The notes: a model not told the origin generated them from the letters alone. 32,000 nucleotides of DNA from Candidatus Nitrospira inopinata (GCF_001458695.1 NZ_LN885086.1:2580001-2612000); one strand, 5' to 3'. Counted from the first letter of the stretch, positions 3,107 through 21,953 are shown. Numbers and translations are program-made.

Positions 3107-3182
3107 TTGAGTGCTCTCCCAAAGCGGGCCGATAAGGACGGCGCGAAATACGACACGGTGGGATGATGCCATAGGGACGGGG

Positions 3183-3224: not shown

Positions 3225-3227
3225 GAA

Positions 3228-4524: not shown

Positions 4525-5271
4525 ATGACGTATCGCATCAAAGTCCCCCCCCGCCAACTGCCCGTCGATGAGGCCAAATTAGTCGGGTCGCTGGAACAGT
4601 GGCTCATGGATATGAAAAAGCATCGGTGGTCGTTTTTGGGCGGGGTGGGAGTGTTGGTCGTGGCGGGGGGTATTATTGCGGCGGTCTTGTGGCAGAACGC
4701 GGAAGCCGCCCGCAAGGCGCAAGACTTGGAACGGGAGGCGACGCTTCATTATCTGATGCGTCCGCTGAATGATCCCAAAAAAGTCGAATCCAACATGCAG
4801 GAAGCGATCGCCCTGTATAAAAAAATTACCGTTGAGTATCCGAACACGCCGTCGGCCCCTCTGGCGCTGTTCGGTCTGGGCAACGCCCTGCTCGAAACCA
4901 ATCAGCTTGACGCCGCGATCGACGCCTATGCGAGGTTGATTTCCACCTATGGCTCGAACAAAACGCTGGTCGATCTTGCGCGTCAAAAACTCGCCTACGC
5001 CTATCTTTTGAAGGGAGATGTCGCTCAAGCGACGCAGTCCTACTCGGCGGTGCTCAATAACCCCGAAGCGCTGAACCGCGATCAGGCGTTGTTCGAGTTG
5101 GCTCGACTGGATGAAAGCCAATCGAGGCTGGATGAAGCGTTGAAGCGGTATCAGGAACTTATCAAATCCTACCCCAACTCTCCGTTGGCCAACGAAGCAA
5201 TTCTTCGGGAAAAAATTCTCGAGGCCAAAAAATCCTACGAGGCAGCCTCCTCGTCCGACAAAAAGCCGTAA
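4525..5271 (+). CDS. membrane-anchored tetratricopeptide-repeat protein (YfgM/YbgF-like architecture)
   Basis: 248 aa. One N-terminal TM helix (WSFLGGVGVLVVAGGIIAAVLW) followed by TPR-like helical repeats (ALFGLGNALLETNQLDAAIDAYARLI, ALFELARLDESQSRLDEALKRYQELI). Confidence 0.65.
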   Translation: MTYRIKVPPRQLPVDEAKLVGSLEQWLMDMKKHRWSFLGGVGVLVVAGGIIAAVLWQNAEAARKAQDLEREATLHYLMRPLNDPKKVESNMQEAIALYKKITVEYPNTPSAPLALFGLGNALLETNQLDAAIDAYARLISTYGSNKTLVDLARQKLAYAYLLKGDVAQATQSYSAVLNNPEALNRDQALFELARLDESQSRLDEALKRYQELIKSYPNSPLANEAILREKILEAKKSYEAASSSDKKP

Positions 5272-5342
5272 CTCTCGCCGAACGCATATTTCATCATCGA
5301 GTGCATCACCAAGCACGCCTCTTCACGGAGCGGAGAAGATGA

Positions 5343-6650: not shown

Positions 6651-6709
6651 GACGATAAGCCTCTCCCTCCTGAGTCGAATATGAGCCTTGTACTGGTCTC
6701 GGTGCGCCT

Positions 6710-6738
6710 AGACTATCGAGCAGTCCGATGCTTGTCAA
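6710..6738 (-). promoter_or_regulatory. candidate sigma70 promoter for the mltD-like gene
   Basis: On the minus strand: TTGACA (6738-6733), 17 nt spacer, TAGTCT (6715-6710), about 60 nt upstream of the ATG at 6650. Confidence 0.4.
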
Positions 6739-6891
6739 GAAATGAAAGGGATGGGAGCCCCCTCTTTAGGAGGATGAGAGATTATGGTGATTTCTATTTT
6801 TTCGATAGCGCTTCAACGATGCTTCTCTGCCGCGCCATCGGGATTCATTGTGAAAACTCTGAAAACATCTGCCGTTGCGGCGGGCGATTTC

Positions 6892-6921
6892 TTGACAGTT
6901 TCCCGGCGCTAATGGTAGCGT
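6892..6921 (+). promoter_or_regulatory. candidate sigma70 promoter (extended -10) for the aminotransferase-serA operon
   Basis: TTGACA (6892-6897), 18 nt spacer, TAGCGT (6916-6921), with a TG at 6913-6914 (TGn extended -10). About 60 nt upstream of the ATG at 6982. Confidence 0.4.
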
Positions 6922-6981
6922 ACCGCCTCTTCTTTCTCGTGGACACCCACCGAAACTCGTTGGTGTAAGGAGGATTGATTC

Positions 6982-8124
6982 ATGTTGAAGCGGTATCTCT
7001 TGGCACCTGGCCCGACGCCTGTGCCGCCCGAAGTCTTATTGGCCATGGCGCGGCCGATCATCCATCACCGAGCGCCGGAGTTCGACCCTATTTTCGCAGA
7101 GGTTCGCGCCGGCTTGCAGTGGCTGTTTCAAACACGGAACGACGTGTTGATGCTGTCGGCATCCGGCACGGGAGGCATGGAGGGAGCCGTCTCGAATTTT
7201 TTATCGCCCGGCGACAAGGCCCTGTTTGTCAATGGCGGCAAGTTCGGAGAGCGCTGGGGCAAGATCTGCAAAACCTTCGGAGTCCAGGCGACCGAAATCA
7301 AAGTCGAGTGGGGCCGTGCGGTCGATCCGCAACAAGTCGCCGACGCACTCAAAAAAGACCCATCCATTAGAGCCGTCTACGTTCAAGCCAGTGAAACGTC
7401 GACGGGCGTGTCACACGATGTCAAAACCCTGGGAGAAATCGTCAAAGCGCATGACAATACCATTCTCGTCGTGGACGCCATCACGGCCTTGGGCGTGTTC
7501 GACATCAAAACCGATGCCTGGGGACTGGACGTCGTCGTGACCGGTTCACAAAAGGCCTTGATGCTTCCGCCCGGCATGGCCTTTGTGAGCGTGAGCGACA
7601 AGGCCTGGGCCTTGGCCGATAAGGCCAAGAACGCCGCCTTCTACTTTAACTTCAAGAAAGAGCGGGAGAATCAAGTCAAGAATCAAACGGCGTTTACTCC
7701 CACCGTTTCTTTGATCGTCGGCCTTCAGGAGGTCTTTAAAATGCTGAAAGCCGAAGGGCTCGACAACATCTTCGCGAGACAGGGACGTTTGGCGCGCGCC
7801 ATGCGCGAAGGAATTCAGGCCGCGGGCTTGACCCTCTTCCCCAAGGAGTCGCCGAGCGACGCCTTGACGGCTGTGTGCGCGCCGGAGGGCATCGACGGCC
7901 AAGCCATCTACAAAAACCTGCGGGTGCAATACGGAATGACGGCAGCGGGGGGACAAGACCATCTGAAGGGGAAAATTTTCCGACTGTCGCACATGGGATA
8001 CGCCGACACGTTTGACGTGATCGCGGCACTGGCCGCGACCGAGATGGTTTTGAAGGGGCTTGGCCATCCGGTACAGTTGGGGCGCGGGGTCGGAAAAGCG
8101 CAAGAAATCCTGATGGCGAAGTAG
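6982..8124 (+). CDS. class V PLP aminotransferase (serine-glyoxylate/alanine-glyoxylate family), probably the phosphoserine aminotransferase of this operon
   Basis: 380 aa. AAGGAGG Shine-Dalgarno 7 nt upstream. N-terminal LLAPGPTPVP and PLP-lysine motif TGSQKAL. Located 36 nt upstream of serA. Confidence 0.8.
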   Translation: MLKRYLLAPGPTPVPPEVLLAMARPIIHHRAPEFDPIFAEVRAGLQWLFQTRNDVLMLSASGTGGMEGAVSNFLSPGDKALFVNGGKFGERWGKICKTFGVQATEIKVEWGRAVDPQQVADALKKDPSIRAVYVQASETSTGVSHDVKTLGEIVKAHDNTILVVDAITALGVFDIKTDAWGLDVVVTGSQKALMLPPGMAFVSVSDKAWALADKAKNAAFYFNFKKERENQVKNQTAFTPTVSLIVGLQEVFKMLKAEGLDNIFARQGRLARAMREGIQAAGLTLFPKESPSDALTAVCAPEGIDGQAIYKNLRVQYGMTAAGGQDHLKGKIFRLSHMGYADTFDVIAALAATEMVLKGLGHPVQLGRGVGKAQEILMAK

Positions 8125-8159
8125 AAGTCATGGGCAAGAACGGAGCGGGAGCGGCGGCC

Positions 8160-9743
8160 ATGAAAATTTTGGTGAGTGACAGCCTGTCGAAGCAGGGCGT
8201 CGAGTTGCTGGAAAAGGCCGGATTCGCCGTGACGGTGAGATCCAAGATGCCGAAAGAGGAGCTCTACGCGGAGATCAAAGACGCCGACGGCTTGATCGTG
8301 AGGTCCGGCACCAAAGTGACGGCGGATTTGATCGCCGCCGCCGAAAAGCTGAAAGTGGTGGGACGGGCCGGGTCCGGGTTGGACAATGTCGACATACCGG
8401 CCGCCACCCGCCGAGGCGTCGTCGTGATGAACACCCCGGGCGGCAATACGGTCACGACGGCCGAACATACGATGGCGTTGATCTTTGCGGCCTGCAGAAA
8501 AATTCCCCAGGCGACGGCGTCGGTCAAACAGGGCAAGTGGGAAAAAGACAAGTTCATGGGCATTGAGCTTTACAACAAGACGCTCGGCATCGTGGGAATC
8601 GGTCAGATCGGCGGGTACTTGGCCAAGCTTGCCCAGGGAGCGTCCATGAACGTCATCGCCTATGACCCCTATCTCGCGCCGGATCGAGCCGAGAAAATGG
8701 GGGTGGGGCTGGTCGAATTGGCCGAGTTGTTTCGCCGCGCCGATATCATCTCCGTTCACACACCGCTCACCCCGGAGACCAGATCGCTGATCAACGCCAA
8801 CGTCATTGAGACCATGAAACCGGGCGTGGTGCTGATCAACTGCGCGCGCGGCGGCATCATCAACGAGGCGGATCTCTATGAGGCGTTGAAAACCAAACGA
8901 GTGGCGGCCGCCGCTTTCGACGTGTTTGAGGAAGAGCCGGTCAAACCCGACAATCCCCTGCTGACGTTGGATAACTTCATTTGCACGCCGCACATCGGCG
9001 CCCAGACCACCGAGGCGCAGGAAAACGTCGCCGTGGCCATTGCGGAACAGATCGTCGATTATTTCACGAAAGGCGTCGCAAAGGGCGCGGTCAACATTCC
9101 CTCGGTCGCACCGGAACTGCTGCCTCGTCTCCAACCGTTTTTGATTTTGGCGGAGCGGCTGGGCTCGCTTCAAACGCAACTGTCGCACGGCGCGATCGAA
9201 CGAGTCACGGTCGAATACAGTGGCGAGGTCGCTTCGTTGTCGGTGGCGCCCCTGACCATCGCCGTGCTGAAGGGGCTCCTTACCCCGATTTTGGAGCACC
9301 CTGTCAATTATGTGAACGCTCCGATCGTGGCCAAGGAGCGAGGAATCGAAGTGAAGGAAGTCCGAATCTCCGACGCCGGAGACTTCACCAGTCTGATTCG
9401 GGTCCGAGTCGAGTCCGGCAGGGCCTCGCACCAGGTGGCCGGCACTCTCTATCATAAAAAGGAAGCCAGGGTGGTGGAGATCGATCAGTTCAAGGTGGAA
9501 ATGGTGCCGGAAGGCCACATGCTGTTCATTCACAATATGGACCGGCCCGGCGTGATCGGCATGGTGGGCAAAGTGCTGGGCGACAACGGCATCAACATCG
9601 TGCGGATGCAATGTGCCCTCGAGAAACGGGGCGGGGACGCGTTGCTGATCATCGCGGCCGATACCGAGTTTCCGACCGCCGTGTTGGACGAGATCAAATC
9701 GAGTTCCAACATTCTTTCGGTCAACGTCGCGAATCTTGGCTGA
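8160..9743 (+). CDS. serA: D-3-phosphoglycerate dehydrogenase with C-terminal ACT domain
   Basis: Family-typical start MKILVSDSLS at 8160 (the ORF track starts at 8130). NAD fold GIVGIGQIGG, catalytic-region motif CTPHIGAQT, and a C-terminal ACT-like segment (HMLFIHNMDRPGVIGMVGKVLG). Confidence 0.9.
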   Translation: MKILVSDSLSKQGVELLEKAGFAVTVRSKMPKEELYAEIKDADGLIVRSGTKVTADLIAAAEKLKVVGRAGSGLDNVDIPAATRRGVVVMNTPGGNTVTTAEHTMALIFAACRKIPQATASVKQGKWEKDKFMGIELYNKTLGIVGIGQIGGYLAKLAQGASMNVIAYDPYLAPDRAEKMGVGLVELAELFRRADIISVHTPLTPETRSLINANVIETMKPGVVLINCARGGIINEADLYEALKTKRVAAAAFDVFEEEPVKPDNPLLTLDNFICTPHIGAQTTEAQENVAVAIAEQIVDYFTKGVAKGAVNIPSVAPELLPRLQPFLILAERLGSLQTQLSHGAIERVTVEYSGEVASLSVAPLTIAVLKGLLTPILEHPVNYVNAPIVAKERGIEVKEVRISDAGDFTSLIRVRVESGRASHQVAGTLYHKKEARVVEIDQFKVEMVPEGHMLFIHNMDRPGVIGMVGKVLGDNGINIVRMQCALEKRGGDALLIIAADTEFPTAVLDEIKSSSNILSVNVANLG

Positions 9744-9760
9744 CGGCTCGTCAGGGTGTC

Positions 9761-10834
9761 ATGGGCTTTGCTCCTCCTTCGTCCGGTATCCCTCCGGAGG
9801 AGATCCAACCGTTGAGAGAGCGATCGCTGGTTCCCGCCGGGATGTCGACGATTCTTCCGGAAGCGGCGCGCCGTTTTCGGAAAATCGAGACACAACTGAT
9901 CGAGACTCTGGCCGGTCGCGGCTTCGAAGAAATCATCCTGCCGACCTTCGAATACCTTGACGTGTTGACGCCAGGTCTTGAGCCGGAACTTATCGAGAAA
10001 TGCTATAAAATTCCCGACCGGACGACGGGTCGCATCCTGCTGCTTCGTCCCGACGCCACGGCGCAAATCGCCCGGACCGTCGCGATGGGGATGATGGGAG
10101 ACCGAACGCCGCTCAAGCTCTCGTACCGCACGACGGTGTTCCGCTATGAACCGGAACACGCCGGTCGGGACCGGGAAATTTTTCAAGTGGGGGCCGAGCT
10201 CATCGGAACCGACGATTCCGCGTCGGACCAAGAAATCGTGTCGCGCCTGATCGATTGTCTTCGGAACATCGGACTGCGGTCGTTCAAGGTTTCCCTGGGG
10301 CACGTCGGATTTTTCAAAAGGTTGCTCGTTCAAGCGGGGCTCTCGGACGCGGGAAAGAAACAGGCGGAGCAGGCGGCCGCGCGCAAGGACGTTCCCAAGC
10401 TCGAAGAAATTCTCTCCGTGGGGCGTGTCCCGCGACGAGCCGGACGGCGCATATTGGAAGCCTTGGAACTCTCCGGGACGGCCGAGGTTATTGCCGAAGG
10501 TCGAGCGTTGGCCGGAAAAGACGCGGCTCTTCACCGATCGCTCGATCGGTTGTCCCAGGTCTATCACGCGCTGTGTCGCGCGGGGCACCGTACGGCGCTG
10601 TTTCTTGACTTGGGAGAATTTCGCGGGTTCGATTATTATGACGGGATCGTCTTCGACGTCTTTGCGGAGGGGGTCGGGGTGGAACTCGGCGGCGGCGGAC
10701 GTTATAACCACTTGATCGGCCGATTCGGAAGAAACCTGCCTTCGACCGGCTTCGCCTTGATCGTCGATCGCTTGTTTCAAGGACTCGGCACGACGGCCGC
10801 GCAACCGGTCTCATCCTCGAAGAAATCTTCATGA
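9761..10834 (+). CDS. hisZ: ATP phosphoribosyltransferase regulatory subunit HisZ (HisRS paralog without anticodon-binding domain)
   Basis: 357 aa from the ATG at 9761, 15 nt after the serA stop. The tracked ORF start at 9611 would overlap serA. Class II aaRS-like motifs (LRPDATAQIAR, FQVGAELIG, GGGGRYNHL). Length fits HisZ, not HisS. Confidence 0.8.
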   Translation: MGFAPPSSGIPPEEIQPLRERSLVPAGMSTILPEAARRFRKIETQLIETLAGRGFEEIILPTFEYLDVLTPGLEPELIEKCYKIPDRTTGRILLLRPDATAQIARTVAMGMMGDRTPLKLSYRTTVFRYEPEHAGRDREIFQVGAELIGTDDSASDQEIVSRLIDCLRNIGLRSFKVSLGHVGFFKRLLVQAGLSDAGKKQAEQAAARKDVPKLEEILSVGRVPRRAGRRILEALELSGTAEVIAEGRALAGKDAALHRSLDRLSQVYHALCRAGHRTALFLDLGEFRGFDYYDGIVFDVFAEGVGVELGGGGRYNHLIGRFGRNLPSTGFALIVDRLFQGLGTTAAQPVSSSKKSS

Positions 10835-12180
10835 AACCCGCCGCCGTTGACTTGTCGCAACCGAAGCTTCCGCCGCAAAACATCGAGGCCGAACAATCGG
10901 TCTTGGGAGCCATTTTGTTGGACAACGCCGCCATGCCCAAGGCGATGGAACTGATCACGGAAGAGGATTTCTACCGGACGGCCCATCGCAAGGTGTACCG
11001 GGCCATGCTCGATCTCGCCGATACCGGCGAAGTGATCGACCAAATCACCCTCACGGAGCGTCTGGCGCGGATGGGAGAGTTGGAAACCGTCGGCGGCGCC
11101 GCGTATCTGGCCGAACTGGTTCAGATCGTTCCCAGCGCCGCCAACGTCCGCTATCACTGCAAAATCGTCCGCGACAAGGCCGTCGCGCGGCAACTGCTCG
11201 CGACTTCCACGGAAGTCTTGACGAGGGGCTACGAAGGAACCGCGTCGATCGATGAGCTCCTCGATTTTGCGGAACGATCCGTCTTCAGCATCGCTCAGGG
11301 CAAGTTGGAACGGCCGTTCACGCCGATCAACCAAATCATCAAAGAAAGTCTTGATTTGGTTGATAAGCTGTCGAAAAGAAAGGAGCACGTCACCGGCGTG
11401 CCGACGGGATACTACGATCTCGACGATCTGACCGCCGGGCTTCAACCGTCCGATTTGGTCGTCGTGGCGGGCCGGCCGAGCATGGGCAAGACCAGCTTGG
11501 CGCTCGGCTTCGCCACCCATGCGGCCATCCACGCGAACGCGGTCGTCGGCATCTTCAGCCTGGAAATGTCCAAACCGCAGATCGTGCTCCGGATGCTAAG
11601 CTCCGAGGCGCGCGTGGACTCCCATGCGTTACGGACGGGCAAACTGCAAAAAGAAGATTGGTGGCGGTTGGCGGAGGCGGCCGGTCGGTTGGAGCAGGCG
11701 TCGATCTATATCGACGACGCCGGCAACCTGACCGTGCAGCAAATGCGGGGGAAAGCCCGCCGGCTCAAGGCCGAAAAGGGGCTCGACCTGCTCATCGTGG
11801 ATTATCTTCAGTTGATGCAGGGACGCGGCGACGCGGAGTCGCGCCAACAGGAAATTTCCGACATCTCCCGCTCGTTGAAAGCCTTGGCGAAAGAGCTGAA
11901 CGTTCCCGTCGTGGCGCTGTCCCAATTGAGCCGCGCGGTCGAATCCCGAAAACCGCCGATCCCGATGTTGGCGGACCTGCGGGAGAGCGGCGCCATTGAA
12001 CAGGACGCCGACGTCGTGATGTTCATCTATCGGGAAGACGTCTACGATTCCAATTCTGAACGCAAAGGCATCGCCGACATCATCGTGAGCAAACACCGCA
12101 ACGGACCGACCGGGAAAAAAGAGCTCTTTTTCCACGATCGCTACGCCAAGTTCGAAAGCCTCGACCTTCGCGAGGCCTGA
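10831..12180 (+). CDS. dnaB: replicative DNA helicase DnaB
   Basis: 449 aa. N-terminal PPQNIEAEQSVLGAILLD, Walker A GRPSMGKTSLAL, DYLQLM, and RESGAIEQDADVV. The start overlaps the hisZ stop (ATGA). Confidence 0.95.
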   Translation: MKPAAVDLSQPKLPPQNIEAEQSVLGAILLDNAAMPKAMELITEEDFYRTAHRKVYRAMLDLADTGEVIDQITLTERLARMGELETVGGAAYLAELVQIVPSAANVRYHCKIVRDKAVARQLLATSTEVLTRGYEGTASIDELLDFAERSVFSIAQGKLERPFTPINQIIKESLDLVDKLSKRKEHVTGVPTGYYDLDDLTAGLQPSDLVVVAGRPSMGKTSLALGFATHAAIHANAVVGIFSLEMSKPQIVLRMLSSEARVDSHALRTGKLQKEDWWRLAEAAGRLEQASIYIDDAGNLTVQQMRGKARRLKAEKGLDLLIVDYLQLMQGRGDAESRQQEISDISRSLKALAKELNVPVVALSQLSRAVESRKPPIPMLADLRESGAIEQDADVVMFIYREDVYDSNSERKGIADIIVSKHRNGPTGKKELFFHDRYAKFESLDLREA

Positions 12181-12223
12181 GGTCGTTTGCGCGCCGTCCA
12201 GCCGCTCGGTATACTGTTCATAC

Positions 12224-14113
12224 ATGCGTGATCATCACCCAGGCTTCATGGCGACGGTTCAAAAGATGGCGAGACCGATGGCGTGCTCCCTGCGGATCGA
12301 CTGCCTGAGACGGCGGGCCGTCCGATCCGTCGTCGGCTCTCTGGCGATCGCGTGCGCCGTCATGGCCTGCGCCGCGTCGCCACGGGCGCAGGAATCGCAA
12401 CTCCTTTCGGAAGAATCGACCACGCGACAAGCCGCCGCGTCCCCGCCCAATTCGGCCGCGACCTATCATTTCATGTTGGGCTACCAAGCTGAGCTGGCAC
12501 AGGATATTGAAACGGCCCTGCGGGAATATCGAGCGACGATCGAAGCGGACCCGACTTCGCGCGACGCGAAGGCCCGGTTGGCCGCTCTCTATTTCGGATT
12601 GGGCGACCTCTCCAACGCGGCCCACTACGCGGAACAGGCGGGAGAAGGAACCGGGCAGACCGCTCAGATGTTGACGCAGATGGCGGGCATTTTGGCCGGC
12701 ACCGGGAAGCCGGAGCGGGCGGTCGAGCTTTTGGACAAGGCGATCGGGCATGCTCCGGAACGCGCGGAATCATACTTTTCAAAAGGTCTTATCCTCTTGA
12801 ACCTGAAAAGAACGGCCGAGGCGGAGCAGGCGATCAAACAAGGCTTGCGATATGCGCCTGATTCTCACGTCGGTCACTATTATTTGGGTCGCATCTCGGT
12901 TGAAATGGGCAATATCGAGCAGGCCGTCTCCGGTTTTCACCAGTCGCTGACGGTGAATCCATCGTTCGAACCGCCCTATCTGGCTCTTGCGTCGATTTAT
13001 GAAAGTCGGAAGGAACGGGACAAGGCGATCGGCTTGCTTCAACTCTACCTGCGCCAAGTCAACCCGCACAACAAAGAAGTCAGACGGCATCTCGTTCAAT
13101 TGCATATCACCGCGAAAGATTACGCGGCGGGGGCGTCGGAACTTGAAAAGATGCTGGAAGACGATCCCGGCGATCTCGACGCGCAGCTCAGAATGGCGCT
13201 CATCCATGGGGAACAAAAAGACTTCGCCAAGGCGATCGACCGACTCACCGCCATTTTGCGAGCCAGACCGGACGAACTGCGGGTCCGCGATTATCTGGGC
13301 TATCTGTACGAGGAAACCAAGGACTTTCCCAAGGCCATCGAGACCTATCGACACAATATTCATCTCGACCCGCGATTTTTGGAGAGCCGTCTCCACCTGG
13401 GCGTGTTGCAGTATCGCCTCAAGAATTTTCCTGAAGCCATCACGCACTTGAGCGAGGTGGTCCGTCTCAATCCCAAACAGCCGGAGCCGCACATCGTGCT
13501 CGGTCTCTCCTATTTGCAGTCCGATAAATTCGAGCAAGCTCTGGAGGCCTTTGAAGAGGGGGTCACCCATCACCCCAAGAATGCCGACCTGCATTTCAAC
13601 CTCGGCACCGCCTACGACAAGCTCAACCGATTTGACGACGTCGTGCGCGCGATGGAGGCGGCGATCGCGCTGGACCCCCACCATGCCGATGCGTTGAACT
13701 ATCTCGGCTACAGTTACGCGGAACGCGGGATCAAGCTCGACCAGGCCCTCTCGCTCACCAAACGGGCCGTCGCCCTCAAACCGGACAACGGCTACTACGT
13801 GGACAGCCTGGGATGGGCCCTGTACAAAGCCGGCATGGTGGAAGAGGCGTTGAAAGAAATCGAACGGGCCGGCAAGCTCGTGAAAGACGATCCGGTGATC
13901 TACGAGCACTTGGGTGAAATCTACCTGCAACAGCGAAAACTGGCCGAAGCCCGGGAAGCCTGGCTCCATTCCCTGGAGATCGATCCCTCCAACGAAAAAC
14001 TTCTCCAGCGCTTCCGCGAGCAGGGGTTCGGTGACCCGGCTCAAGAACGGCGCATCCAGCAGGCCAAACAACGGGTGGCGGAGAAGAAACAAGCCCCACC
14101 GGCATCGCCGTAA
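12224..14113 (+). CDS. large tetratricopeptide-repeat protein, probably exported or a lipoprotein
   Basis: 629 aa. N-terminal basic plus hydrophobic segment SVVGSLAIACAVMACAAS (possible lipobox AIAC or VMAC). The rest is a long run of 34-residue TPR-like units (e.g. HFNLGTAYDKLNRFDDVVRAMEAAIALDPHHADALNYLGYSYAERG). The exact start is uncertain. Confidence 0.75.
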   Translation: MRDHHPGFMATVQKMARPMACSLRIDCLRRRAVRSVVGSLAIACAVMACAASPRAQESQLLSEESTTRQAAASPPNSAATYHFMLGYQAELAQDIETALREYRATIEADPTSRDAKARLAALYFGLGDLSNAAHYAEQAGEGTGQTAQMLTQMAGILAGTGKPERAVELLDKAIGHAPERAESYFSKGLILLNLKRTAEAEQAIKQGLRYAPDSHVGHYYLGRISVEMGNIEQAVSGFHQSLTVNPSFEPPYLALASIYESRKERDKAIGLLQLYLRQVNPHNKEVRRHLVQLHITAKDYAAGASELEKMLEDDPGDLDAQLRMALIHGEQKDFAKAIDRLTAILRARPDELRVRDYLGYLYEETKDFPKAIETYRHNIHLDPRFLESRLHLGVLQYRLKNFPEAITHLSEVVRLNPKQPEPHIVLGLSYLQSDKFEQALEAFEEGVTHHPKNADLHFNLGTAYDKLNRFDDVVRAMEAAIALDPHHADALNYLGYSYAERGIKLDQALSLTKRAVALKPDNGYYVDSLGWALYKAGMVEEALKEIERAGKLVKDDPVIYEHLGEIYLQQRKLAEAREAWLHSLEIDPSNEKLLQRFREQGFGDPAQERRIQQAKQRVAEKKQAPPASP

Positions 14114-14659
14114 CCTCCACTCGGTTTACATCCGCAACCCTCACGACATCGCAATCGTTTGTCGAGTCAGAAGCCTCTCATCATCAAGGTGCCTGAGACT
14201 TATGGAAGTTGGTACACGTGTCCCACAATGGGGAGAGAAATGACTTGATGGGCGAAGTTGTGCCCACTTGATCAAGATAGCGAGCGCCAGAGTCTCCGTT
14301 GTGTAAGAGGTGTAATAGACTTCCCCACGCCATTTCTTCATATAGCCTCCAATGGCGGAGCCATCCTTTCCCCTCATGCCGTATCCGATACGCCAAGGCT
14401 CTCGTATCGGAGAAGATACGAGACAAACGTGATAGCGCGCCGCCATGGTCGTGGTCGTTCCTGTCCGTTGAGCACCCTTGTCATCCTCGCTTCCAAACCC
14501 GCTTGTGAACAGGGCAAGTGACGAGGTGCCAATTTTTGGCGCTGGGTCACGGAATCTGAAACCGACGCGCAGCGGGCCCTGGCAAACCCCGTTGGACGAT
14601 CCCTCCCAAAGCCACGAGTTTTCAAGTGGTTCGAGCACGAGCCTCATGAAAAGGTCACA

Positions 14660-14675
14660 CGGCATTGAACCTGCT
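14660..14675 (+). promoter_or_regulatory. candidate sigma54 (-24/-12) promoter for pilA
   Basis: The sequence is cGGCATTGAACCTGCT. GG at 14661-14662 and GC at 14673-14674 have the spacing of the TGGCACG-N4-TTGCW consensus (matches GGCA and TGCT). It lies 84 nt upstream of the pilA ATG. pilA is sigma54/PilR-dependent in Pseudomonas and Myxococcus. Confidence 0.45.
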
Positions 14676-14757
14676 AGATAGCCTGGTAGGCGGCACCATC
14701 GCGCCGCGGATGTTCAACCGGGCCGTGAGCGGCCTTTCACTTAACCAGGAGGCGGGT

Positions 14758-15381
14758 ATGATGAGCAGGGTTTTCAAAAAACAAGAGGGGTTCACCCTCA
14801 TTGAGTTGATGATCGTCGTGGCGATCATCGGGATCTTGGCGGCCATCGCCATTCCCAACTTCTTACAGTACCAGATGAAGTCGCGGCAGTCTGAAGCCAA
14901 GACGAACCTGCAGGCGATTAAGACGTCGGAAGTGTCGTGGCAGGGTGAACGGGGCTGTTTCTTAGTGGCCGGCCAATGGCCTGTAGCTGCTATTCCTACT
15001 GCAGCGAAATCCTCGCCTGTAACATGGTTTCCAGGAGGTGCTGGACCAGTTGTGACTCCTCCCCTTGCCACTGGATGGTGCTCAGCTATGGGGCCCGGTG
15101 GGACTACAGGCACCTTTACAGACCTTGGATTTGAGCCAACTGGTAATGTGTACTATGCGTATTCTACCGGCACCTACGCTGTAAATCACACGTCATGTCT
15201 TGGGCCGACACTGGCCCCTGCAGCCAACGTGACGTTCGAGACTGGAGCTCTTGATGCTGGTACAACCGCAGCCGGGTTCAGAGCCACGGCCTCAGCTAAT
15301 TTGGACGGAGTTGCCCCTGCTTCTGTATGGGCTTCGTCAGATGGGCAGGGTGCCCAAGACTGTACGCCGGGAGTTTTCTAA
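14758..15381 (+). CDS. pilA: type IVa major pilin, Myxococcus-type PilA
   Basis: AGGAGG at 14747-14752. Short leader MMSRVFKKQEG followed by FTLIELMIVVAIIGILAAIAIPNF (G-1, F+1, E+5 prepilin peptidase site). Mature protein is 196 aa with 4 Cys. The tracked ORF start at 14665 is rejected in favour of the Shine-Dalgarno-preceded ATG. Confidence 0.92.
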   Translation: MMSRVFKKQEGFTLIELMIVVAIIGILAAIAIPNFLQYQMKSRQSEAKTNLQAIKTSEVSWQGERGCFLVAGQWPVAAIPTAAKSSPVTWFPGGAGPVVTPPLATGWCSAMGPGGTTGTFTDLGFEPTGNVYYAYSTGTYAVNHTSCLGPTLAPAANVTFETGALDAGTTAAGFRATASANLDGVAPASVWASSDGQGAQDCTPGVF

Positions 15382-15410
15382 TATCGGCTAGATCAGCACT
15401 TGTGTAAAAC

Positions 15411-15450
15411 GTCCCGCCGGTTGGTAACAGCCGGCGGGATTCGTCGTTTC
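15411..15450 (+). terminator. rho-independent terminator after pilA
   Basis: 11-bp GC-rich stem 15413-15423 / 15428-15438 (CCCGCCGGTTG / CAGCCGGCGGG, one G-U pair) closed by a GTAA tetraloop and followed by ATTCGTCGTTTC. Confidence 0.65.
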
Positions 15451-15472
15451 ATAGTTGTATCCAAGCCTCTCC

Positions 15473-16459
15473 ATGAAAACCGCATCTCCTAGTTCCGACT
15501 CGGCGACTTTGATTCAAGGCCCCAATACGCAGGTGGGCTTTCTTTCGGTAGCAGGTGTTGTTTTCTCACTTGTTGTTCTCGTTACAGGGCTCCAGCAGAC
15601 TCTTGATCACCGCCAAGACCGAACATTTGTCCAAATTGAAGAACTGGCCCATCTCCCTCAAGGCGACCATCTCAAGCCCACGCTGCTCGGCTATCACCAT
15701 CTGGGGGCCGATGTGCTGTGGCTTAAGCTTGTGCAGGTGATTGGCAAGCGCCAGAACACGATGGACGAATACGAATGGATGGCCCATGCCTTGGACGTGA
15801 TCACGACGCTGGATCCCCAGTATGCCTATGCCTATTACGCGGGCGGAGTGATTTTGGGTGACTTGGCCAACCGGCCCGATCTGGCCAATCGGTTGCTCAA
15901 GCGAGGCCATGAGGAAAACCCCACCGCGTGGAACATTCCGTTTTTGCTCGGCTACAACTATTACTTCCTCTTGGCCGATCCGGCCATGGGCGCCTACTAC
16001 ACGATGCGGGCGGCATCCCTCCCCGGCCGGCCAGCCTATCTGCCCGGGCTCGCCACCCGCATGGCGGCGGAGGCCGGCAAGCCGGAGACGGCGCTCGCGT
16101 TTCTCGAAGCGCGGCTCCGGGAAACGGACGATCCGGAAATGAAAAAATTCTTTGAGACGAGGATGAAAGAAGTCATCATCGAACGGGACATTCGTCTGCT
16201 GGAGCGGGCGGTGGACCACTATCGGACGATCCATGGCCAGGTGCCGCCGTCACTCACGGCATTGGTTGGGGCAGGGGTGCTTACCGCTTTGCCGCCTGAG
16301 CCCTTCGGCGGGGAGTATCGTCTCGATCAATGGACCGGCACCGTGACCAGTTCGACCCATCCGGAACGGCTTAAGACGTTTCATAAACGAAATAGAGCGC
16401 CGGCATATCTCTATCCCAAGATCGAGCAACCGGCCTATGTGTTTCCGTTGAGGTGGTAG
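15473..16459 (+). CDS. membrane-anchored helical-repeat protein with GspG-like C-terminal module (positional equivalent of M. xanthus PilG)
   Basis: ORF 15455-16459 (TTG) or ATG 15473. No clear Shine-Dalgarno for either, so the start is uncertain. One TM helix (VGFLSVAGVVFSLVVLVTGL), a TPR-like all-alpha core, and a C-terminal DIRLLERAVDHYRTIHGQVPPSLTALV...LPPEPFGGEYRL. It lies immediately between pilA and an ABC-2 transporter. Confidence 0.6.
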   Translation: MKTASPSSDSATLIQGPNTQVGFLSVAGVVFSLVVLVTGLQQTLDHRQDRTFVQIEELAHLPQGDHLKPTLLGYHHLGADVLWLKLVQVIGKRQNTMDEYEWMAHALDVITTLDPQYAYAYYAGGVILGDLANRPDLANRLLKRGHEENPTAWNIPFLLGYNYYFLLADPAMGAYYTMRAASLPGRPAYLPGLATRMAAEAGKPETALAFLEARLRETDDPEMKKFFETRMKEVIIERDIRLLERAVDHYRTIHGQVPPSLTALVGAGVLTALPPEPFGGEYRLDQWTGTVTSSTHPERLKTFHKRNRAPAYLYPKIEQPAYVFPLRW

Positions 16460-16464
16460 GGACG

Positions 16465-17430
16465 ATGACGGACTGTGGGGATGCGGTTATTCAAATCCAA
16501 GACTTGACGAAGGTATTTCGCGTCGGCTTTTGGGGTCGCAAGGTGACGGCGGTGGATCGGGTGTCGCTGGCCGTGCAGCGAGGCGAGGTGTTCGGCTTTC
16601 TGGGCCCCAACGGGGCGGGAAAGACGACCACGCTCAAGATGCTGATGGGCTTGATCTATCCCACGAGCGGGCGGGCCACGATCTTCGGCCATCCGATCGG
16701 CGCGCCGCAAGCCAAGGCCAAGCTGGGATTTCTGCCGGAGTCGCCCTATTTTTATGACTATCTCACCGGGGCGGAGTTCTTGCGGTTTTATGGGCATCTG
16801 TTCGGGCTGCGCGGCACGGCCCTGAGCAAGAGAATCGACGAGCTGCTCGACACGGTGGGGATGGCCCATGCGCGGGATCTCCAGTTGCGCAAGTTTTCCA
16901 AGGGCATGTTGCAGCGGGTGGGGATTGCCCAAGCCTTGATCAATGATCCGGAACTGGTGGTGTTGGATGAGCCGATGTCGGGCCTCGATCCGATCGGGCG
17001 GAAAGAGGTGCGAGACCTGATTTTGCGGCTGAAAGAAGCGGGCAAGACCGTGCTCTTTAGCTCGCACATTTTGCATGATGCCGAATTGCTCTGTGATCGA
17101 GTGGCCATGATCATGAAGGGGCGGTTGGTGGCCTGTGGGCCGGTGTCCGACCTGTTGGCCGGCGGCTCGACCCATGAGGTGGAACTAGTGATCGAGCGGC
17201 TCATGCCGGAGGCGCTGGAGCGGATCAGGCCCTTTGCGAAAAAAGTGGTGGTTCAAGGCGAGCAGGTGCTGGTGGTGCTGGCGAGCCAACATGATGTGAA
17301 CCATGCGATTGATGTGGTCCGCTCGGTGAAGGGCCACGTGGTGTCGCTCACGCCGCACCGGGCGTCGCTCGAAGATCTGTTCATCCGCGAGGCCAAGAGC
17401 GCGAAGCAGCCGGTGGAGGTGGCGGCCTGA
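16465..17430 (+). CDS. ABC transporter ATP-binding protein, ABC-2 subfamily (positional equivalent of M. xanthus PilH)
   Basis: ATG at 16465 is preceded by GAGGTGG and lies 5 nt after the upstream stop. Walker A GPNGAGKTT, signature SKGMLQR, Walker B LVVLDEP, H-loop SSHIL, and a C-terminal extension of about 90 aa. Confidence 0.9.
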   Translation: MTDCGDAVIQIQDLTKVFRVGFWGRKVTAVDRVSLAVQRGEVFGFLGPNGAGKTTTLKMLMGLIYPTSGRATIFGHPIGAPQAKAKLGFLPESPYFYDYLTGAEFLRFYGHLFGLRGTALSKRIDELLDTVGMAHARDLQLRKFSKGMLQRVGIAQALINDPELVVLDEPMSGLDPIGRKEVRDLILRLKEAGKTVLFSSHILHDAELLCDRVAMIMKGRLVACGPVSDLLAGGSTHEVELVIERLMPEALERIRPFAKKVVVQGEQVLVVLASQHDVNHAIDVVRSVKGHVVSLTPHRASLEDLFIREAKSAKQPVEVAA

Positions 17431-18191
17431 TGAAGATCCTGTCGATCGCGCTGAACACGTTTCGTGAAAATCTGCGGGATAAGCTGCTCTACAATCTGTT
17501 GATCTTTGCGCTGCTCATGATCGGCAGCTCGATCATCATCTCGAAACTCACGCTGGGCGATTTCGATCGGCTGATGATCGACATCGGCTTGGCGAGCGTG
17601 AACTTCTTCGGCGTGTTGATCGCCATCTTCATCGGTATCGGACTGGTCAGCAAGGAGATCGACAAGAAGACGATCTACACGATCGTGTCGAAGCCGGTGG
17701 CCCGCTATGAATTTCTGCTGGGCAAGTATCTGGGGCTCTTGATCACGTTGCTCGTCAACACCACGGTCATGACGATCGGCCTGTTGGTCGTCTTGTGGGC
17801 GAGGAACGTGGCGGTGGACGGTCTCTTGTTTCAAGCGGTGGGAATGATCTTTGTCGAGTTCATGGTCATCACGGCGGTGGCGCTGCTGTTTTCAACCTTT
17901 ACGAGCACGACCCTGAGCGCGATCTTCACCTTGGCGATCTATGTGATCGGCCACCTGACGCCGGATCTCAAAACCTTCGGTGAAAAGATGGACGAGCTGG
18001 GACAGGCGGTCATGAATGGCCTCTACTATGTCCTCCCCAATCTTGAACGGTTCAACCTCAAGGGGCATGTGATCCACCATCTCCAGCTCGCGAGCGCCGA
18101 TCTCGCCCTGATCGTGCTGTATGGCCTGGCCTATGCCACGTTTCTGCTCGTGGTCGCTGGTCTCATCTTTGAGCGACGCGACTTCCGCTGA
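17430..18191 (+). CDS. ABC-2 type transporter permease (positional equivalent of M. xanthus PilI)
   Basis: 253 aa. The start overlaps the ATPase stop (TGATG at 17428-17432). About six hydrophobic helices (e.g. LLIFALLMIGSSIIIS, FFGVLIAIFIGIGLV, LGLLITLLVNTTVMTIGLLVV). Confidence 0.85.
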   Translation: MKILSIALNTFRENLRDKLLYNLLIFALLMIGSSIIISKLTLGDFDRLMIDIGLASVNFFGVLIAIFIGIGLVSKEIDKKTIYTIVSKPVARYEFLLGKYLGLLITLLVNTTVMTIGLLVVLWARNVAVDGLLFQAVGMIFVEFMVITAVALLFSTFTSTTLSAIFTLAIYVIGHLTPDLKTFGEKMDELGQAVMNGLYYVLPNLERFNLKGHVIHHLQLASADLALIVLYGLAYATFLLVVAGLIFERRDFR

Positions 18192-18284
18192 GCCCCTTCA
18201 TCGTTGCCACGGTTCATCGCGGGGGGGTTGGCTCTTTCCACGCCAGAGTCGGTCAAACAGATTGCTGGGTGGTCGTCTCACGTG

Positions 18285-19868
18285 ATGGCTGCAATTGTGT
18301 CCAGGCCCAGGAGTTGGGTGTGGGGACCGGCTTCTCTTGCAGCCTGGTGTTTCCTTGCCACCGCAGTGACAGCCCAAGGAATGGATGAGACCATTGTGCT
18401 CCAACCGCCACTGCCCGATCGGATCGATCGGATCGAACTGGTCTGGTCCGGCGGTGCAGAGCCGACGGTGCTGATCAATCAACCGGCGCCATCCCCGCGA
18501 CGTGCTGAACGGTTGAGAGGGACCGAGTCGCGACTGATTCCAGCAGCGGAACGACTGCGGTCTTTTGGATCTTGCGCTGTGAGCTGGCTGGTGCGGGGAG
18601 AGCATCTCGTGATTCAGTTCGAAGGAACGGCGGAAGCTGCCTGTGGAGTCGTCTGGTTTTTGGGGAGGCCGGAGGAAGCAGTGGATGTCCTGTCGTTTCA
18701 GGCTCTGCGGGTTGTTGGCCGCGCGTCAGGGACGATCGAGATAGGCATGGCAGATCGCCTATGGTGGAACAAGCAGGACCATGTGTCGTGTGTGACGGTG
18801 AGCGGGCCGTTTGAGGCGGACGTTTCGCTTGCTCGATTGATCGATCGGGTGGATCTGCGAGAGCTGGTGGCCCTGACTGTTACAGCCCGTGAGGTGCCAG
18901 CCGAACTCACCATCCAACGAGCGTGGCTTGAGGCTCATCCCGTTCAGCAGGCCGGTGCGATGAAGCGCGGCCTGTGGGTCTGGGACCTTCAGAAGGCGCA
19001 GCAACAGGCCGATCAAATCGTGAAGACCTGCCGGTCGATCGGGTGCCGGCGGCTGTCGATCCAGATGCCTTCGGCCGGCGATCCTGACTCGGTGTGGCGA
19101 ACCTTCTGCTCGCTGGTCCGCCGTTGGCGCGACGAGGGGATCGAGGTCTTGGCGCTGGATGGATATCCGGAAGCGGCCGTGAATCCTGACCGGCTGCTGG
19201 CAGGCATCCGACGACTCGTTGTGGAGTGTGGCGACGTTCTTCCTGCTGGGCTGCAGGTGGATATCGAGCCCTATCTGCTGCCAGAGGCGAGACTGGGGCA
19301 AGACCGGTATCGGGACTATCTCATCTCGTTGGCTCAGATCCGGCAAATGTTGCCGCCGGATGTGCCTCTGTCGGTCATCGTGCCCTTTTGGTTTCCGCAG
19401 GTGTCGGTCGAGGGGCGATCCTTGGCTCAGCAGGTGTTCGAGCGAGCCGATGAAGTCGTGGTCATGAGTTACCGTGCCGATGTAGCCGAAGCCTTGGCAC
19501 TAATGGATGACTGGGTGCGCTATGGCGTTCTGCTGGGGAAACCAGTGTGGGGAGCGCTTGAGACTCGTCCACTTCCGGATGAGCGGCATCTTGTCCTCCA
19601 GTTGGTGGACCGCCCGGAAGAAGCCACGGCTTTTTTTGATCGATCGAGAGGCCGCCTGGTGCTGGCTGCTCCTCGCTCGGCTGACTCTCGGTTCATTTAT
19701 TTCGCCGAAGCTGCTCGTTACGAGGTACAGGGAAGCCGGCTCAGTTTTGCCGGCCGTTCAAAAGCCACTGTCATCCGCGCGATCGACCAATGGGCTCAAG
19801 GGGCTCGTCATTCTCCTGTGGCTGGACTGATGATTCATGACTGGGAGGGCTATGAACAATTACCGTGA
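18285..19868 (+). CDS. secreted hypothetical protein: beta-rich N-domain plus TIM-barrel, glycoside-hydrolase-like C-domain
   Basis: ATG at 18285 gives a signal peptide (SWVWGPASLAAWCFLATAVTAQG). The C-terminal half has alternating strand/helix segments (GLWVWD, RLSIQM, EVLALDG, GLQVDIEPY, LSVIVPFW, EVVVMSY, PVWGALET). The function is inferred from this pattern only. Confidence 0.5.
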   Translation: MAAIVSRPRSWVWGPASLAAWCFLATAVTAQGMDETIVLQPPLPDRIDRIELVWSGGAEPTVLINQPAPSPRRAERLRGTESRLIPAAERLRSFGSCAVSWLVRGEHLVIQFEGTAEAACGVVWFLGRPEEAVDVLSFQALRVVGRASGTIEIGMADRLWWNKQDHVSCVTVSGPFEADVSLARLIDRVDLRELVALTVTAREVPAELTIQRAWLEAHPVQQAGAMKRGLWVWDLQKAQQQADQIVKTCRSIGCRRLSIQMPSAGDPDSVWRTFCSLVRRWRDEGIEVLALDGYPEAAVNPDRLLAGIRRLVVECGDVLPAGLQVDIEPYLLPEARLGQDRYRDYLISLAQIRQMLPPDVPLSVIVPFWFPQVSVEGRSLAQQVFERADEVVVMSYRADVAEALALMDDWVRYGVLLGKPVWGALETRPLPDERHLVLQLVDRPEEATAFFDRSRGRLVLAAPRSADSRFIYFAEAARYEVQGSRLSFAGRSKATVIRAIDQWAQGARHSPVAGLMIHDWEGYEQLP

Positions 19869-21837
19869 TGATCAGGAGCCAGGCGACCCCTCTTCTTCAG
19901 GTGAGGGGGTGGCTGACCGTCGTGCAAGACGGCGACCTAGCCTGTTTACGGGAGTGTTGATCATGACCGGGATCCTGATCGGCTGGTGGGTCTGGACCGA
20001 TCCGTCAGCGCTGATGACCTTGCAGGGTCATCGCATGGTGGTGGTGCCGGGGTTGTCCGGGCCCTCCATCCCCTCCGTTCTTTCTGATGAGCGACCCACC
20101 CCCTGGTCTCGGTACGCAGAGGGCGAGGTCCATCGGTTGGCTGTGTTGTTGACCGATCCTCGGTCCAACTGGTTGGAGCTGGTTCACGGGTTGAAGGCCA
20201 AGGGGATTCCCTTTGTGCTGACCGATCAGCCAGAACGGGCCCTTCTCCACCGGGTGATTCTGGTCTACCCGATCCTCTCGGGAAAGGTCTTGAGTCGTGA
20301 GGCGATCCAACGGTTGGCGGCCCATCCACGACAGGGCGGCACCCTTATCGTGTGTGGGCCGACCGGTGGCGGTCTTGAAGAGGTGTTCGGCATCCAAGAG
20401 GCTTCGGAAAGTCGGTCACCAAACGCGCTACTCTTTCACGATGAGCCCTGGTTGTTGCGGGGAGGCGCTCCTGACCGGCACTGGACGATTCCACTGCGCC
20501 ACCCGGCTGGGGTCGATCCACCGATCAGGGTGACTGCGTACCGGCCGTCAACAGCCACGGTGTTGGCTTCGTATGAAGACGGGCTGGCCGGCATCGTCCA
20601 ACGGGCAATTGGCTCGGGCTGGGCGATGGCGGTGGGCGTCGATATCGGGTACCTGTTGTGGCGCGGGCATACGTTACGGGCCGAAGGCTTTTCTGGATCG
20701 TTTAACAACCGATTTACTCCGGCGACTGATGGGCTTTTGCTGTTGCTGGAAACTGTCTATCGCCGAGGCGAGCCGTGGGCCGTCACGCTTGATCCGACGC
20801 CCGAGGGTCGGACCATGACCGTCTTGTTGACGCACGATGTGGATGCCCAAACGTCCATGCGCAACGCCCTGATCTTTGCCAAGGAAGAGCAGGCTCGTGG
20901 AGTGCGCGGAACCTTTTTTATTCAAACGAAGTACATCCGCGATTTCAATGACGAAGTCTTTTTGACCGATCAGTGGATCGCGGATATGAGAGCCTTGGCC
21001 GCCATGGGGATGGAGATCGGCAGCCACACGGTGGCCCACTCAAAGGTGTTTGATCGGTTTCCGATGGGAACAGGAACGGAGCAGTACCCTGATTATCGGC
21101 CGATTGTCACGAACCGATTGGCTGCGCGGGGCGTGACCGTGCTGGGGGAACTGCGGGTGAGCAAGTTTCTGCTGGAGGCCCTGGCGCCTGGTGTCACGGT
21201 CCGGTCGTTTCGTGCGGGAGAGCTGGCGTATCCGCTTGGTCTGCCTCAGGCGTTGGTCGCGGCGGGGTATCACTACAACTCGACGGCGACGGCCAACACG
21301 GCCTTGACCCACTTGCCATACCGGTTAATGAAGGACCGGATGGATCTGGTGGAGGTGGGCGCGTATGAATTCCCTGTCGCGGTCGAAGACGAAGAACTGC
21401 CGCCGCTCGGCGAGCGGTTGCCCGACGCCTTGAAACTGGCCGAACAGATGAATCGATACGGCGGGGTCCTGACGGTGCTCATTCACCCTAACATTCTCGA
21501 TCACAAGTTGCGATTTGAGGTGGGATTGATCGAGGCGCTGAAGCCAAGCGCCTGGATCGGCGTGCTCGATGAGTTTGGAGCCTGGTGGAGGGGGCGGGAT
21601 CACGTCGAGGTGGATGTCCTGGAAACCAACGACGGCTTTCGTCTGCGGCTCACTGCGCAGGAACCCGTCTCTGGCTTGACCGTGCTCTTGCCCTTGTCTT
21701 GCACCACCAAGGGACAAGATGCCGTGCCATCTCCACGGCCCTGGACCTCAACCGCCGTGGTGGTGTCGTTGGAACGAGGCGCTCAGCGAGTGATTTCTTT
21801 GGATGGCTGCCGACAAGCAGGTCGCCGTGAGGCCTGA
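19852..21837 (+). CDS. membrane-anchored polysaccharide deacetylase (CE4/NodB-like) with N-terminal flavodoxin/GATase-like domain
   Basis: ATG at 19852 is preceded by GGGAGGG and overlaps the upstream gene by 17 nt. TM helix LFTGVLIMTGILIGWWVW. CE4-like motifs: LLTHDVD (Asp-Asp), GSHTVAH (His-x3-His), FRAGELAYP, VLIHPN. Confidence 0.65.
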   Translation: MNNYRDDQEPGDPSSSGEGVADRRARRRPSLFTGVLIMTGILIGWWVWTDPSALMTLQGHRMVVVPGLSGPSIPSVLSDERPTPWSRYAEGEVHRLAVLLTDPRSNWLELVHGLKAKGIPFVLTDQPERALLHRVILVYPILSGKVLSREAIQRLAAHPRQGGTLIVCGPTGGGLEEVFGIQEASESRSPNALLFHDEPWLLRGGAPDRHWTIPLRHPAGVDPPIRVTAYRPSTATVLASYEDGLAGIVQRAIGSGWAMAVGVDIGYLLWRGHTLRAEGFSGSFNNRFTPATDGLLLLLETVYRRGEPWAVTLDPTPEGRTMTVLLTHDVDAQTSMRNALIFAKEEQARGVRGTFFIQTKYIRDFNDEVFLTDQWIADMRALAAMGMEIGSHTVAHSKVFDRFPMGTGTEQYPDYRPIVTNRLAARGVTVLGELRVSKFLLEALAPGVTVRSFRAGELAYPLGLPQALVAAGYHYNSTATANTALTHLPYRLMKDRMDLVEVGAYEFPVAVEDEELPPLGERLPDALKLAEQMNRYGGVLTVLIHPNILDHKLRFEVGLIEALKPSAWIGVLDEFGAWWRGRDHVEVDVLETNDGFRLRLTAQEPVSGLTVLLPLSCTTKGQDAVPSPRPWTSTAVVVSLERGAQRVISLDGCRQAGRREA

Positions 21838-21953
21838 GTCTTAAGCGCTTGATCTCTCCCGTTGCGAGAGAAGCCGGATCGTCGCGGTGGGATGCGGTTG
21901 AGGAATAGGGGCTTCGAGCAACAGCTTCACTTCAATGGAAGCCGAATGTCATA

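Follow-up and report, generated by a model that had tools for sequence, protein, structure and literature searches.

The type IV pilin gene pilA of Candidatus Nitrospira inopinata is followed on the same strand by five open reading frames (ORFs; g1 to g5 below), of which three have the layout of a pilin-linked ABC transporter and two resemble polysaccharide-tailoring enzymes. Do these five genes encode one apparatus? The initial annotation of the locus, made on the 32,000-nt stretch NZ_LN885086.1:2580001-2612000 (the window; positions are counted from its first nucleotide), suggested that they do, and that a PilGHI-type transporter handles a glycan that g4 and g5 trim and deacetylate. Our analysis does not bear this out. 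We consider it probable that the block consists of two modules lying side by side: a pilin-linked ABC transporter, and a relocated g4-g5 fragment of a Pga-like exopolysaccharide (EPS) system. This reading is carried by protein families, predicted folds, synteny statistics and selection. The adjacency of the two modules is limited to one clade, and the usual home of g4 and g5 is beside a GT2 synthase and a porin. The five + strand ORFs are indeed packed behind pilA, at positions 15473-21837, and the features of the block are as follows.

14758-15381, + strand: pilA, type IV major pilin (N_methyl PF07963, 5.5e-10; typeIV_PilA_Myxo, 1.3e-23, N-terminal part)
15412-15439, + strand: GC-rich hairpin, terminator- or attenuator-like, with a 12-bp stem, 3' of pilA
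15473-16459, + strand: g1, single-pass membrane protein in the place of PilG, its ectodomain helical and TPR-like
16465-17430, + strand: g2, ATPase of an ABC transporter (DrrA/GldA/NodI-like), in the place of PilH (PF00005, 5e-29)
17430-18191, + strand: g3, ABC-2 permease of PF12679 type, in the position of PilI (PF12679, 3.4e-14)
18318-19868, + strand (alternative start ATG 18285): g4, exported protein with a beta-sandwich resembling a carbohydrate-binding module (CBM) and a (beta/alpha)8 barrel, by predicted fold
19852-21837, + strand: g5, periplasmic protein with a predicted membrane anchor, which combines a CE4 domain with one like domain B of GH42 (glutamine-amidotransferase-like)

The order pilA-g1-g2-g3 is kept in 10/10 Nitrospira loci examined, at the fixed site serA-hisS-dnaB-TPR-pilA-g1-g2-g3, and the genes that follow the permease vary. 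The complete order pilA-g1-g2-g3-g4-g5-ilvD(-) is also present in L004 and L005, with g4 78% identical, and in L006 and L007, with g4 56% identical; locus-tag spacing suggests the same five-gene order in the metagenome-assembled genomes NNA31 and NNA20. Five other Nitrospira loci, with g1-g3 68-75% identical, keep the backbone up to g3 and then carry other genes before ilvD, namely a DegT-family aminotransferase and a trypsin-like protease (L008, L173, L174 and L175) or a 413-aa TPR protein (L009). Among the Nitrospira loci sampled, g4 and g5 occupy the slot after the permease in the inopinata clade only. The pilin-ABC module is conserved up to the end of g3; that g4/g5 adjoin pilA and the ABC genes reflects a rearrangement specific to one clade and does not characterise the family. 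The initial annotation had staked its proposal on homologues of the last two genes being syntenic with pil or ABC-2 genes elsewhere; such synteny does recur, within this one clade. In the loci with the alternative cargo, the DegT/DnrJ/EryC1 sugar aminotransferase and protease genes span 12810-15097 (L008), 10016-12283 (L173), 10005-12245 (L174) and 9818-11692 (L175).

All five genes are under purifying selection. Identity to L006 is 79-89% for g1-g3, 56% for g4 and 75% for g5, and the ratio of nonsynonymous to synonymous substitution rates (dN/dS) is 0.12-0.14 for g1, 0.06-0.12 for g2, 0.06-0.09 for g3, 0.17-0.25 for g4 and 0.11 for g5, with dS up to 2. The fastest-evolving enzyme gene of the block is g4, and every family-invariant residue of g4 and g5 is kept in the window copies. 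The GC content of g4-g5 equals that of the neighbouring genes and hence gives no hint of a recent transfer. Insertion scars sought round the pair came down to a 15-nt inverted repeat (18327-18341 / 21863-21877, 14/15 complementary) that brackets g4-g5; by a rough estimate such a repeat is expected at about chance level in a 3.9-kb region, and it was rejected as a mobile-element scar.

The surroundings of g4 and g5 relatives outside the clade are of another kind. In the seven loci fetched by protein, g4, usually together with g5, lies beside a GT2 synthase and a TPR/YaiO porin. L001 and L002 have the order REC-GGDEF, HEAT, GT2, g4 (50%), TPR/YaiO porin, g5 (66%), and L003 has the same gene set. 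On the 3.6-Mb contig CP092079 (L091), a GT2 gene on the - strand is followed by g4 (33%, E 9e-84), the porin and g5, and then by HEAT, REC, Hpt and histidine kinase genes. L010, L011 and L038 agree with the GT2/g4/porin/g5 arrangement. We refer to this gene set as the Nitrospirota Pga-like operon, which is located as follows.

L091 (CP092079), 5058-13013: Nitrospirota Pga-like operon
L001, 869-10288: Nitrospirota Pga-like operon
L003, 8491-16001: Nitrospirota Pga-like operon

A survey of 80 metagenome loci, found via an alignment of the porin and many of them on short contigs, gave a similar picture: g4 is present in 60/80, GT2 in 49/80 and g5 in 41/80, the commonest order being GT2(-) g4 porin g5. 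Neither g1 nor g3 occurs in any of these 80 loci or of the seven protein-derived ones. The GT2 of the operon is 26% identical to Escherichia coli PgaC (E 5e-30), and its best NCBIfam match is PgaC_IcaA (1.8e-35; 122.7 bits vs an equivalog cut-off of 422.3); the porin has TPRs like those of PgaA and a barrel of YaiO type. Genome contigs were also scanned with a GT2 alignment, and the best 80 loci, mostly from other phyla, were kept. Among the matches listed (L012-L089), the REC-GGDEF/HEAT/GT2 trio occurs in Gemmatimonadota, Acidimicrobiia, Chloroflexota, Solirubrobacterales, Acidobacteriota and others; within these best 80, the trio loci are without g4 and porin, and only L066 has g5. The trio looks like a widespread core of a synthase linked to cyclic di-GMP (c-di-GMP). 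Our literature search found no description of a Nitrospira GT2/deacetylase EPS operon.

Two side observations concern the integrity of this operon. In the metagenome loci L155, L159 and L162, the GT2 gene adjoins the porin gene and g4/g5 are not within reach; the enzyme pair is therefore separable from synthase and porin in other lineages too. At L003 14547-17267, the g5 homologue stops at 484 aa with an rve-family transposase gene directly after it, and appears to be an insertion-truncated copy.

The families and predicted folds of g4 and g5 agree with such a setting. For g5, the CE4 assignment of the initial annotation has held: PF01522 is matched at 24.8 bits vs a gathering cut-off of 23.1 (E 2.3e-5), and this marginal score is supported by Foldseek, in which the predicted model (predicted local distance difference test, pLDDT, 80) matches the CE4 structures 4dwe (a putative polysaccharide deacetylase), ArnD, BA3943, PdaC and a Vibrio chitin deacetylase. 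Residues H328, D329 and D331 (T-H-D-V-D), H392 and H396 (H-T-V-A-H), R454, and H545 (L-I-H-P) are invariant in 31 homologues and would represent the CE4 metal triad and catalytic motifs. The THDVD and HTVAH motifs align with TFDDG and HTW..H of PgaB, although the profile comparison of g5 with the N-terminal part of PgaB was insignificant overall, with the CE4 motifs alone aligned. The N-terminal domain of g5 resembles GH42 domain B in the model and matches a BgaB domain at 3e-4 by sequence; a match to PF08532 is weak. Together with one transmembrane (TM) anchor at residues 31-49 in hydropathy analysis, the motifs and the model identify g5 as a membrane-anchored CE4 deacetylase.

The glycosidase-like character ascribed to g4 is likewise upheld, by predicted fold only. 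The N-terminus is signal-peptide-like in hydropathy (...AWCFLATAVTAQG), and the AlphaFold model (pLDDT 88; predicted template modelling score 0.84) has an N-terminal beta-sandwich and a C-terminal (beta/alpha)8, or TIM, barrel. Foldseek matched this model to a CBM22-GH10 xylanase (7.5e-10), GH18 chitinases, SleL, GH84, CBM29 and CBM11. Among solved structures, only PDB 10yv ('putative GH97 from C. fimi') is related to g4 in sequence; the g4 profile matches it at 1.3e-14 over barrel strands 1-5, with the motif Q-L-D-x-E-P-[WY] in common. This 275-aa protein of Cellulomonas fimi is, unlike g4, a single domain, without the CBM-like domain and the insertion after strand 7; a literature search found no paper on it, and its function appears putative only. 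Invariant residues of the g4 family are D326, E328 and P329 (D-I-E-P) after beta4 (strand 322-325) and E426 after beta7 (strand 421-425), and in the model the positions of E328 and E426 fit a clan GH-A-like 4/7 catalytic pair. No Pfam or NCBIfam family could be assigned to g4, even at E<=1 across 31 members; the Pfam search on these 31 homologues gave stray matches only (DUF3142 in two, GH18 in one at E 0.098). We thus describe g4 as a putative glycoside hydrolase of an unclassified family.

The initial annotation had called g4 and g5 a split PelA/PgaB-like pair. The comparison to a split PgaB suits the survey: relatives of the pair have a PgaC-like GT2 and a TPR porin resembling PgaA for neighbours. 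By sequence, no relation of g4 to the C-terminal (GH153) part of PgaB was detected, hhalign against E. coli PgaB giving a probability of 0.8%, and g4 belongs to another TIM-barrel family. In E. coli PgaABCD terms, the relatives' g4/g5 accompany a PgaC-like GT2 and a porin of TPRs and a beta-barrel, with a c-di-GMP-type regulator adjoining, and deacetylase plus TIM-barrel glycosidase-like module match the two halves of PgaB (CE4 and GH153). The differences are several. The two activities would lie on separate proteins; a CBM-like domain is additional in g4, as is a GH42-domain-B-like domain in g5, and g5 is held by a TM anchor in place of a lipobox. The porin barrel of the Nitrospirota operon is of YaiO type, and a HEAT-repeat protein replaces PgaD. 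The window itself has the CE4 deacetylase only, the PgaC/IcaA-type GT2 and the TPR-barrel porin being absent there.

As for the transporter genes, an ATPase and an ABC-2 permease do follow pilA in the order of Myxococcus xanthus pilA-pilG-pilH-pilI (MXAN_5783-5780), on one strand, as had been annotated; the likeness is one of gene order, and no NCBIfam PilG/H/I model matches g1-g3. Hydropathy supports the annotated topology, with one TM segment in g1 (residues 21-39) and about six in the 253 residues of g3, in addition to the g4 signal peptide and the g5 anchor. The length of g3 is similar to that of M. xanthus PilI, of which little follows codon 250, a deletion end point (PMC5544727). Two differences from M. 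xanthus are evident: pilD follows pilI there, whereas the corresponding Nitrospira slot is variable, and a hairpin separates pilA from g1 in the window. The M. xanthus genes pilAGHI are described as one operon (PMC3546991). A requirement of PilGHI for pilus biogenesis or function is known for M. xanthus only (PMC3546991, PMC5544727). The g1 protein has no Pfam, NCBIfam or PDB match; it has 100% identity to one deposited protein of N. inopinata and about 70% to its counterparts across the genus, and its family comprises 3055 representatives at 50% identity (full-library search, E<=1e-3). For g2, the NCBIfam matches TIGR01188 drrA (2.5e-70) and GldA (1.4e-60) each remain under their cut-offs.

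The analogy with ABC-2 glycan exporters drawn in the initial annotation is not supported by the permease family. Wzm/Wzt, KpsM/KpsT and TagG/TagH resemble g2-g3 in their two-component architecture of a six-TM permease and a separate ATPase. However, g3 belongs to PF12679, with weaker matches to PF13346, PF12730 and PF24686, and PF01061 (ABC2_membrane), the Wzm/KpsM/TagG type, is absent at E<=0.01. The JGI name of g3 is 'ABC-type transport system involved in multi-copper enzyme maturation permease subunit' (NosY-like). Partners of glycan export are also missing from the neighbourhood: as annotated, profile searches of the 32-kb window gave no glycosyltransferase, porin or secretin, and no PCP/OPX protein of KpsE/KpsD or Wza type either, and the flanks of the syntenic loci L004-L007 contain no glycosyltransferase or outer-membrane export partner. 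The xap cluster of Geobacter contains polysaccharide biosynthesis genes, whereas the window has none.

Based on these data, we propose a plausible arrangement, in which the substrate, the enzymatic activities, the direction of rearrangement and the independence from the ABC transporter are what we infer. Module A would comprise pilA and g1-g2-g3, that is, an accessory membrane protein, an ATPase and a NosY/PF12679-type ABC-2 permease. Module B, g4-g5, would be the periplasmic tailoring pair of a Nitrospirota synthase-dependent EPS system, whose usual form is a PgaC-like GT2, then g4, TPR/YaiO porin and g5, then HEAT and a regulator of c-di-GMP or phosphorelay type. On the model of PgaB, a polymer of N-acetylglucosamine (GlcNAc) type made by the GT2 would be de-N-acetylated by g5 during its passage through the periplasm, and g4 would bind and cleave the polymer via its CBM-like domain and TIM barrel, the latter with Glu residues conserved behind strands 4 and 7. 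Export would proceed through synthase and porin and would not need the ABC transporter. In the inopinata clade, the variable slot that follows the permease gene and precedes ilvD holds the pair, with neither synthase nor HEAT-repeat gene beside it; no porin gene separates g4 from g5 any more, and the two overlap by 17 nt. The most economical history would be that g4-porin-g5 moved long ago and the porin gene was lost, or that the two genes moved alone. Most likely, the substrate of g4-g5 in N. inopinata is still an amino-sugar polymer in the periplasm, made by a synthase that is encoded at another site. There is no terminator ahead of g4, so readthrough from pilA-ABC and co-expression of the modules are possible; a transport pathway common to both is unlikely.

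Several observations weigh against this proposal. Adjacency of g4-g5 to the ABC genes persists through deep clade divergence (dS about 2), which is compatible with selection for co-expression, and a single transcript is possible given that g3 and g4 are not separated by a terminator: between them we found no stable structure comparable to the pilA hairpin (z = +1.4 vs shuffles). The other common cargo of the slot, the DegT-family enzyme, is likewise sugar-related. In Geobacter sulfurreducens, the ABC transporter gene GSU1501 (xapD) of the xap cluster lies near pilA and is described as encoding a sugar ABC transporter that biofilms on electrodes require (PMC5585712); it is therefore a precedent for polysaccharide-linked, pilin-adjacent ABC systems, and its likeness to the window is one of gene position. 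The enzymatic roles of g4 and g5 are putative, drawn from motifs, models and analogy. Lastly, neither a GT2 synthase nor a porin could be shown anywhere in N. inopinata. In a scan of JGI metagenomes with two conserved porin peptide motifs, 88 porin relatives were confirmed, and 0/88 came from sample Ga0239290, which holds the N. inopinata contig, in a scan that relies on two short peptide patterns. This suggests that N. inopinata is without the porin. No N. inopinata GT2 was among the best 80 loci of the genome-contig scan. If the porin is absent, the tailoring of a synthase-made polymer of its own would have no demonstrated substrate or export route in N. inopinata.

These absences lead to an explanation that we regard as unlikely but worth weighing, namely that synthase and porin have been lost and the orphaned pair has acquired a new role, remodelling some other periplasmic or surface glycan with its expression tied to pili; examples would be the peptidoglycan round the pilus machine or the matrix polymer of neighbouring cells. 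The missing porin relative and GT2 are in its favour, as is the purifying selection that continues on g4 and g5 though their neighbours are lost. CE4 enzymes and GH18-like barrels moreover include peptidoglycan-active enzymes, and PdaC and SleL are among the structural matches. However, the absence of synthase and porin is unproven, given that the scans rest on short peptide patterns and, for GT2, on the best 80 loci; all residues invariant in the EPS-operon homologues are kept, which argues for unchanged chemistry; and any alternative substrate is conjectural.

The single pilus-linked system, in which g1-g3 would export a glycan or lipid-linked glycan that g4 trims and g5 deacetylates in the periplasm, is in our view quite doubtful. 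Tight packing on one strand without a terminator between g3 and g4 speaks for it, and the arrangement is stable in the inopinata clade down to 56% g4 identity; the sugar-related DegT cargo and the xapD transporter near Geobacter pilA (PMC5585712) point in the same direction. M. xanthus pilGHI mutants are without S-motility and EPS (PMC5544727), which is true of its pil mutants generally. Against this, g4/g5 are never beside g1 or g3 outside one clade (0/80 porin loci, 0/7 protein-derived loci), and five other Nitrospira loci have pilA-ABC without g4/g5. The permease is of PF12679 and not of Wzm/KpsM/TagG type, and the window is without glycosyltransferase, PCP/OPX protein and porin. In addition, g1-g3 evolve much more slowly than g4, as independent modules would. 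A related and similarly improbable possibility is that the pair has been rewired behind the pilin-ABC operon in the inopinata clade, coupling pilus expression to the remodelling of a GlcNAc-type matrix; in a stronger version, the PilGHI-type transporter would deliver or condition the substrate.

That g4-g5 are decaying remnants of a broken-up operon with no present function is very hard to sustain: the lost porin gene between the two speaks for it, as does the rapid evolution of g4, fastest among the enzyme genes here, but reading frames are intact in all clade members, dN/dS is 0.11-0.25 for g4/g5, all invariant residues are kept, and so is a translational coupling signal, GGGAGG before ATG 19852.

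Nitrospira are the main nitrite oxidisers, and include complete ammonia oxidisers (comammox), in wastewater and drinking-water biofilms, and they grow as dense, matrix-embedded microcolonies. The by-products of interest are the Nitrospirota Pga-like operon and the enzyme pair left orphaned in a comammox lineage: the EPS operon that the survey has brought to light is conserved and, as far as our literature search showed, undescribed, and the inopinata clade retains just two periplasmic enzymes of it beside pilin genes, a lead on nitrifier matrix chemistry. The case is also a warning that function read from adjacency can mislead, the link between PilGHI and a glycan being a clade-specific juxtaposition.

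At the nucleotide level, most of the junctions given in the initial annotation are correct. The g1 stop TAG is at 16459 and the g2 start ATG at 16465; TGATG at 17428-17432 forms the g2/g3 overlap; g3 stops at 18191; and the g5 start ATG 19852, with GGGAGG ahead, gives a 17-nt overlap with the g4 stop (19866-19868). The 93-nt gap between g3 and g4 is the part to be revised. ATG 18285 has no Shine-Dalgarno sequence, GTG 18318 has AGGAG at 18306-18310, and the 516-aa product from GTG 18318 is an exact match to the deposited N. inopinata protein CUQ67624.1; the 527-aa version from ATG 18285 was not found in the protein collection that holds CUQ67624.1. The g4 start is more likely GTG 18318 than ATG 18285, and a gap of 126 nt is therefore more likely than one of 93 nt. 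The products of g2, g3 and g4 are identical to CUQ67622-67624, and PilA corresponds to CUQ67620.1, named 'putative Type IV pilin PilA'; the same locus was found on the 1.06-Mb N. inopinata contig Ga0239290_10002 at JGI.

As to the pilA terminator that had been annotated, the hairpin is real and its terminator character less clear. The region 15382-15472 has a minimum free energy of -39.8 kcal/mol (z = -5.9; 0/200 shuffles equally stable), and the U-tail behind the stem is poor (AUUCGUCGUUU). Scans for Rfam families and tRNAs gave nothing in the window; upstream of pilA, matches to a sigma-54 promoter were no more than chance would give, and a sigma-70 and terminator scan stayed at the level of shuffled sequence. 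Upstream, the gap between pilA and the preceding TPR gene (14114-14757) is unusually long, at about 640 nt; neither an Rfam match nor a convincing promoter of sigma-54 or sigma-70 type was found in it, and JGI calls there a 174-aa antisense ORF, 14141-14665 (-). The gene before this gap is the following.

12224-14113, + strand: TPR protein, PilW/Tgl-like (NCBIfam type_IV_pilW, 148.7 bits, cut-off 154; Tgl, 1.7e-26)

This 629-aa protein is also encoded upstream of pilA in L004, L005, L008, L009 and L173-L175, and it probably serves in pilus assembly in the manner of a pilotin. Two genes for T2SSE-family ATPases, PilT/PilB-like, lie some 11 kb ahead of pilA, at 843-2018 (-) and 2048-3400 (-) (PF00437, 1.9e-44 and 3.9e-51), so that further pilus genes are nearby. 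With a Tgl/PilW-like TPR protein and PilT/PilB-type ATPase genes in the window, the surroundings of pilA resemble the M. xanthus pil cluster in this respect as well.

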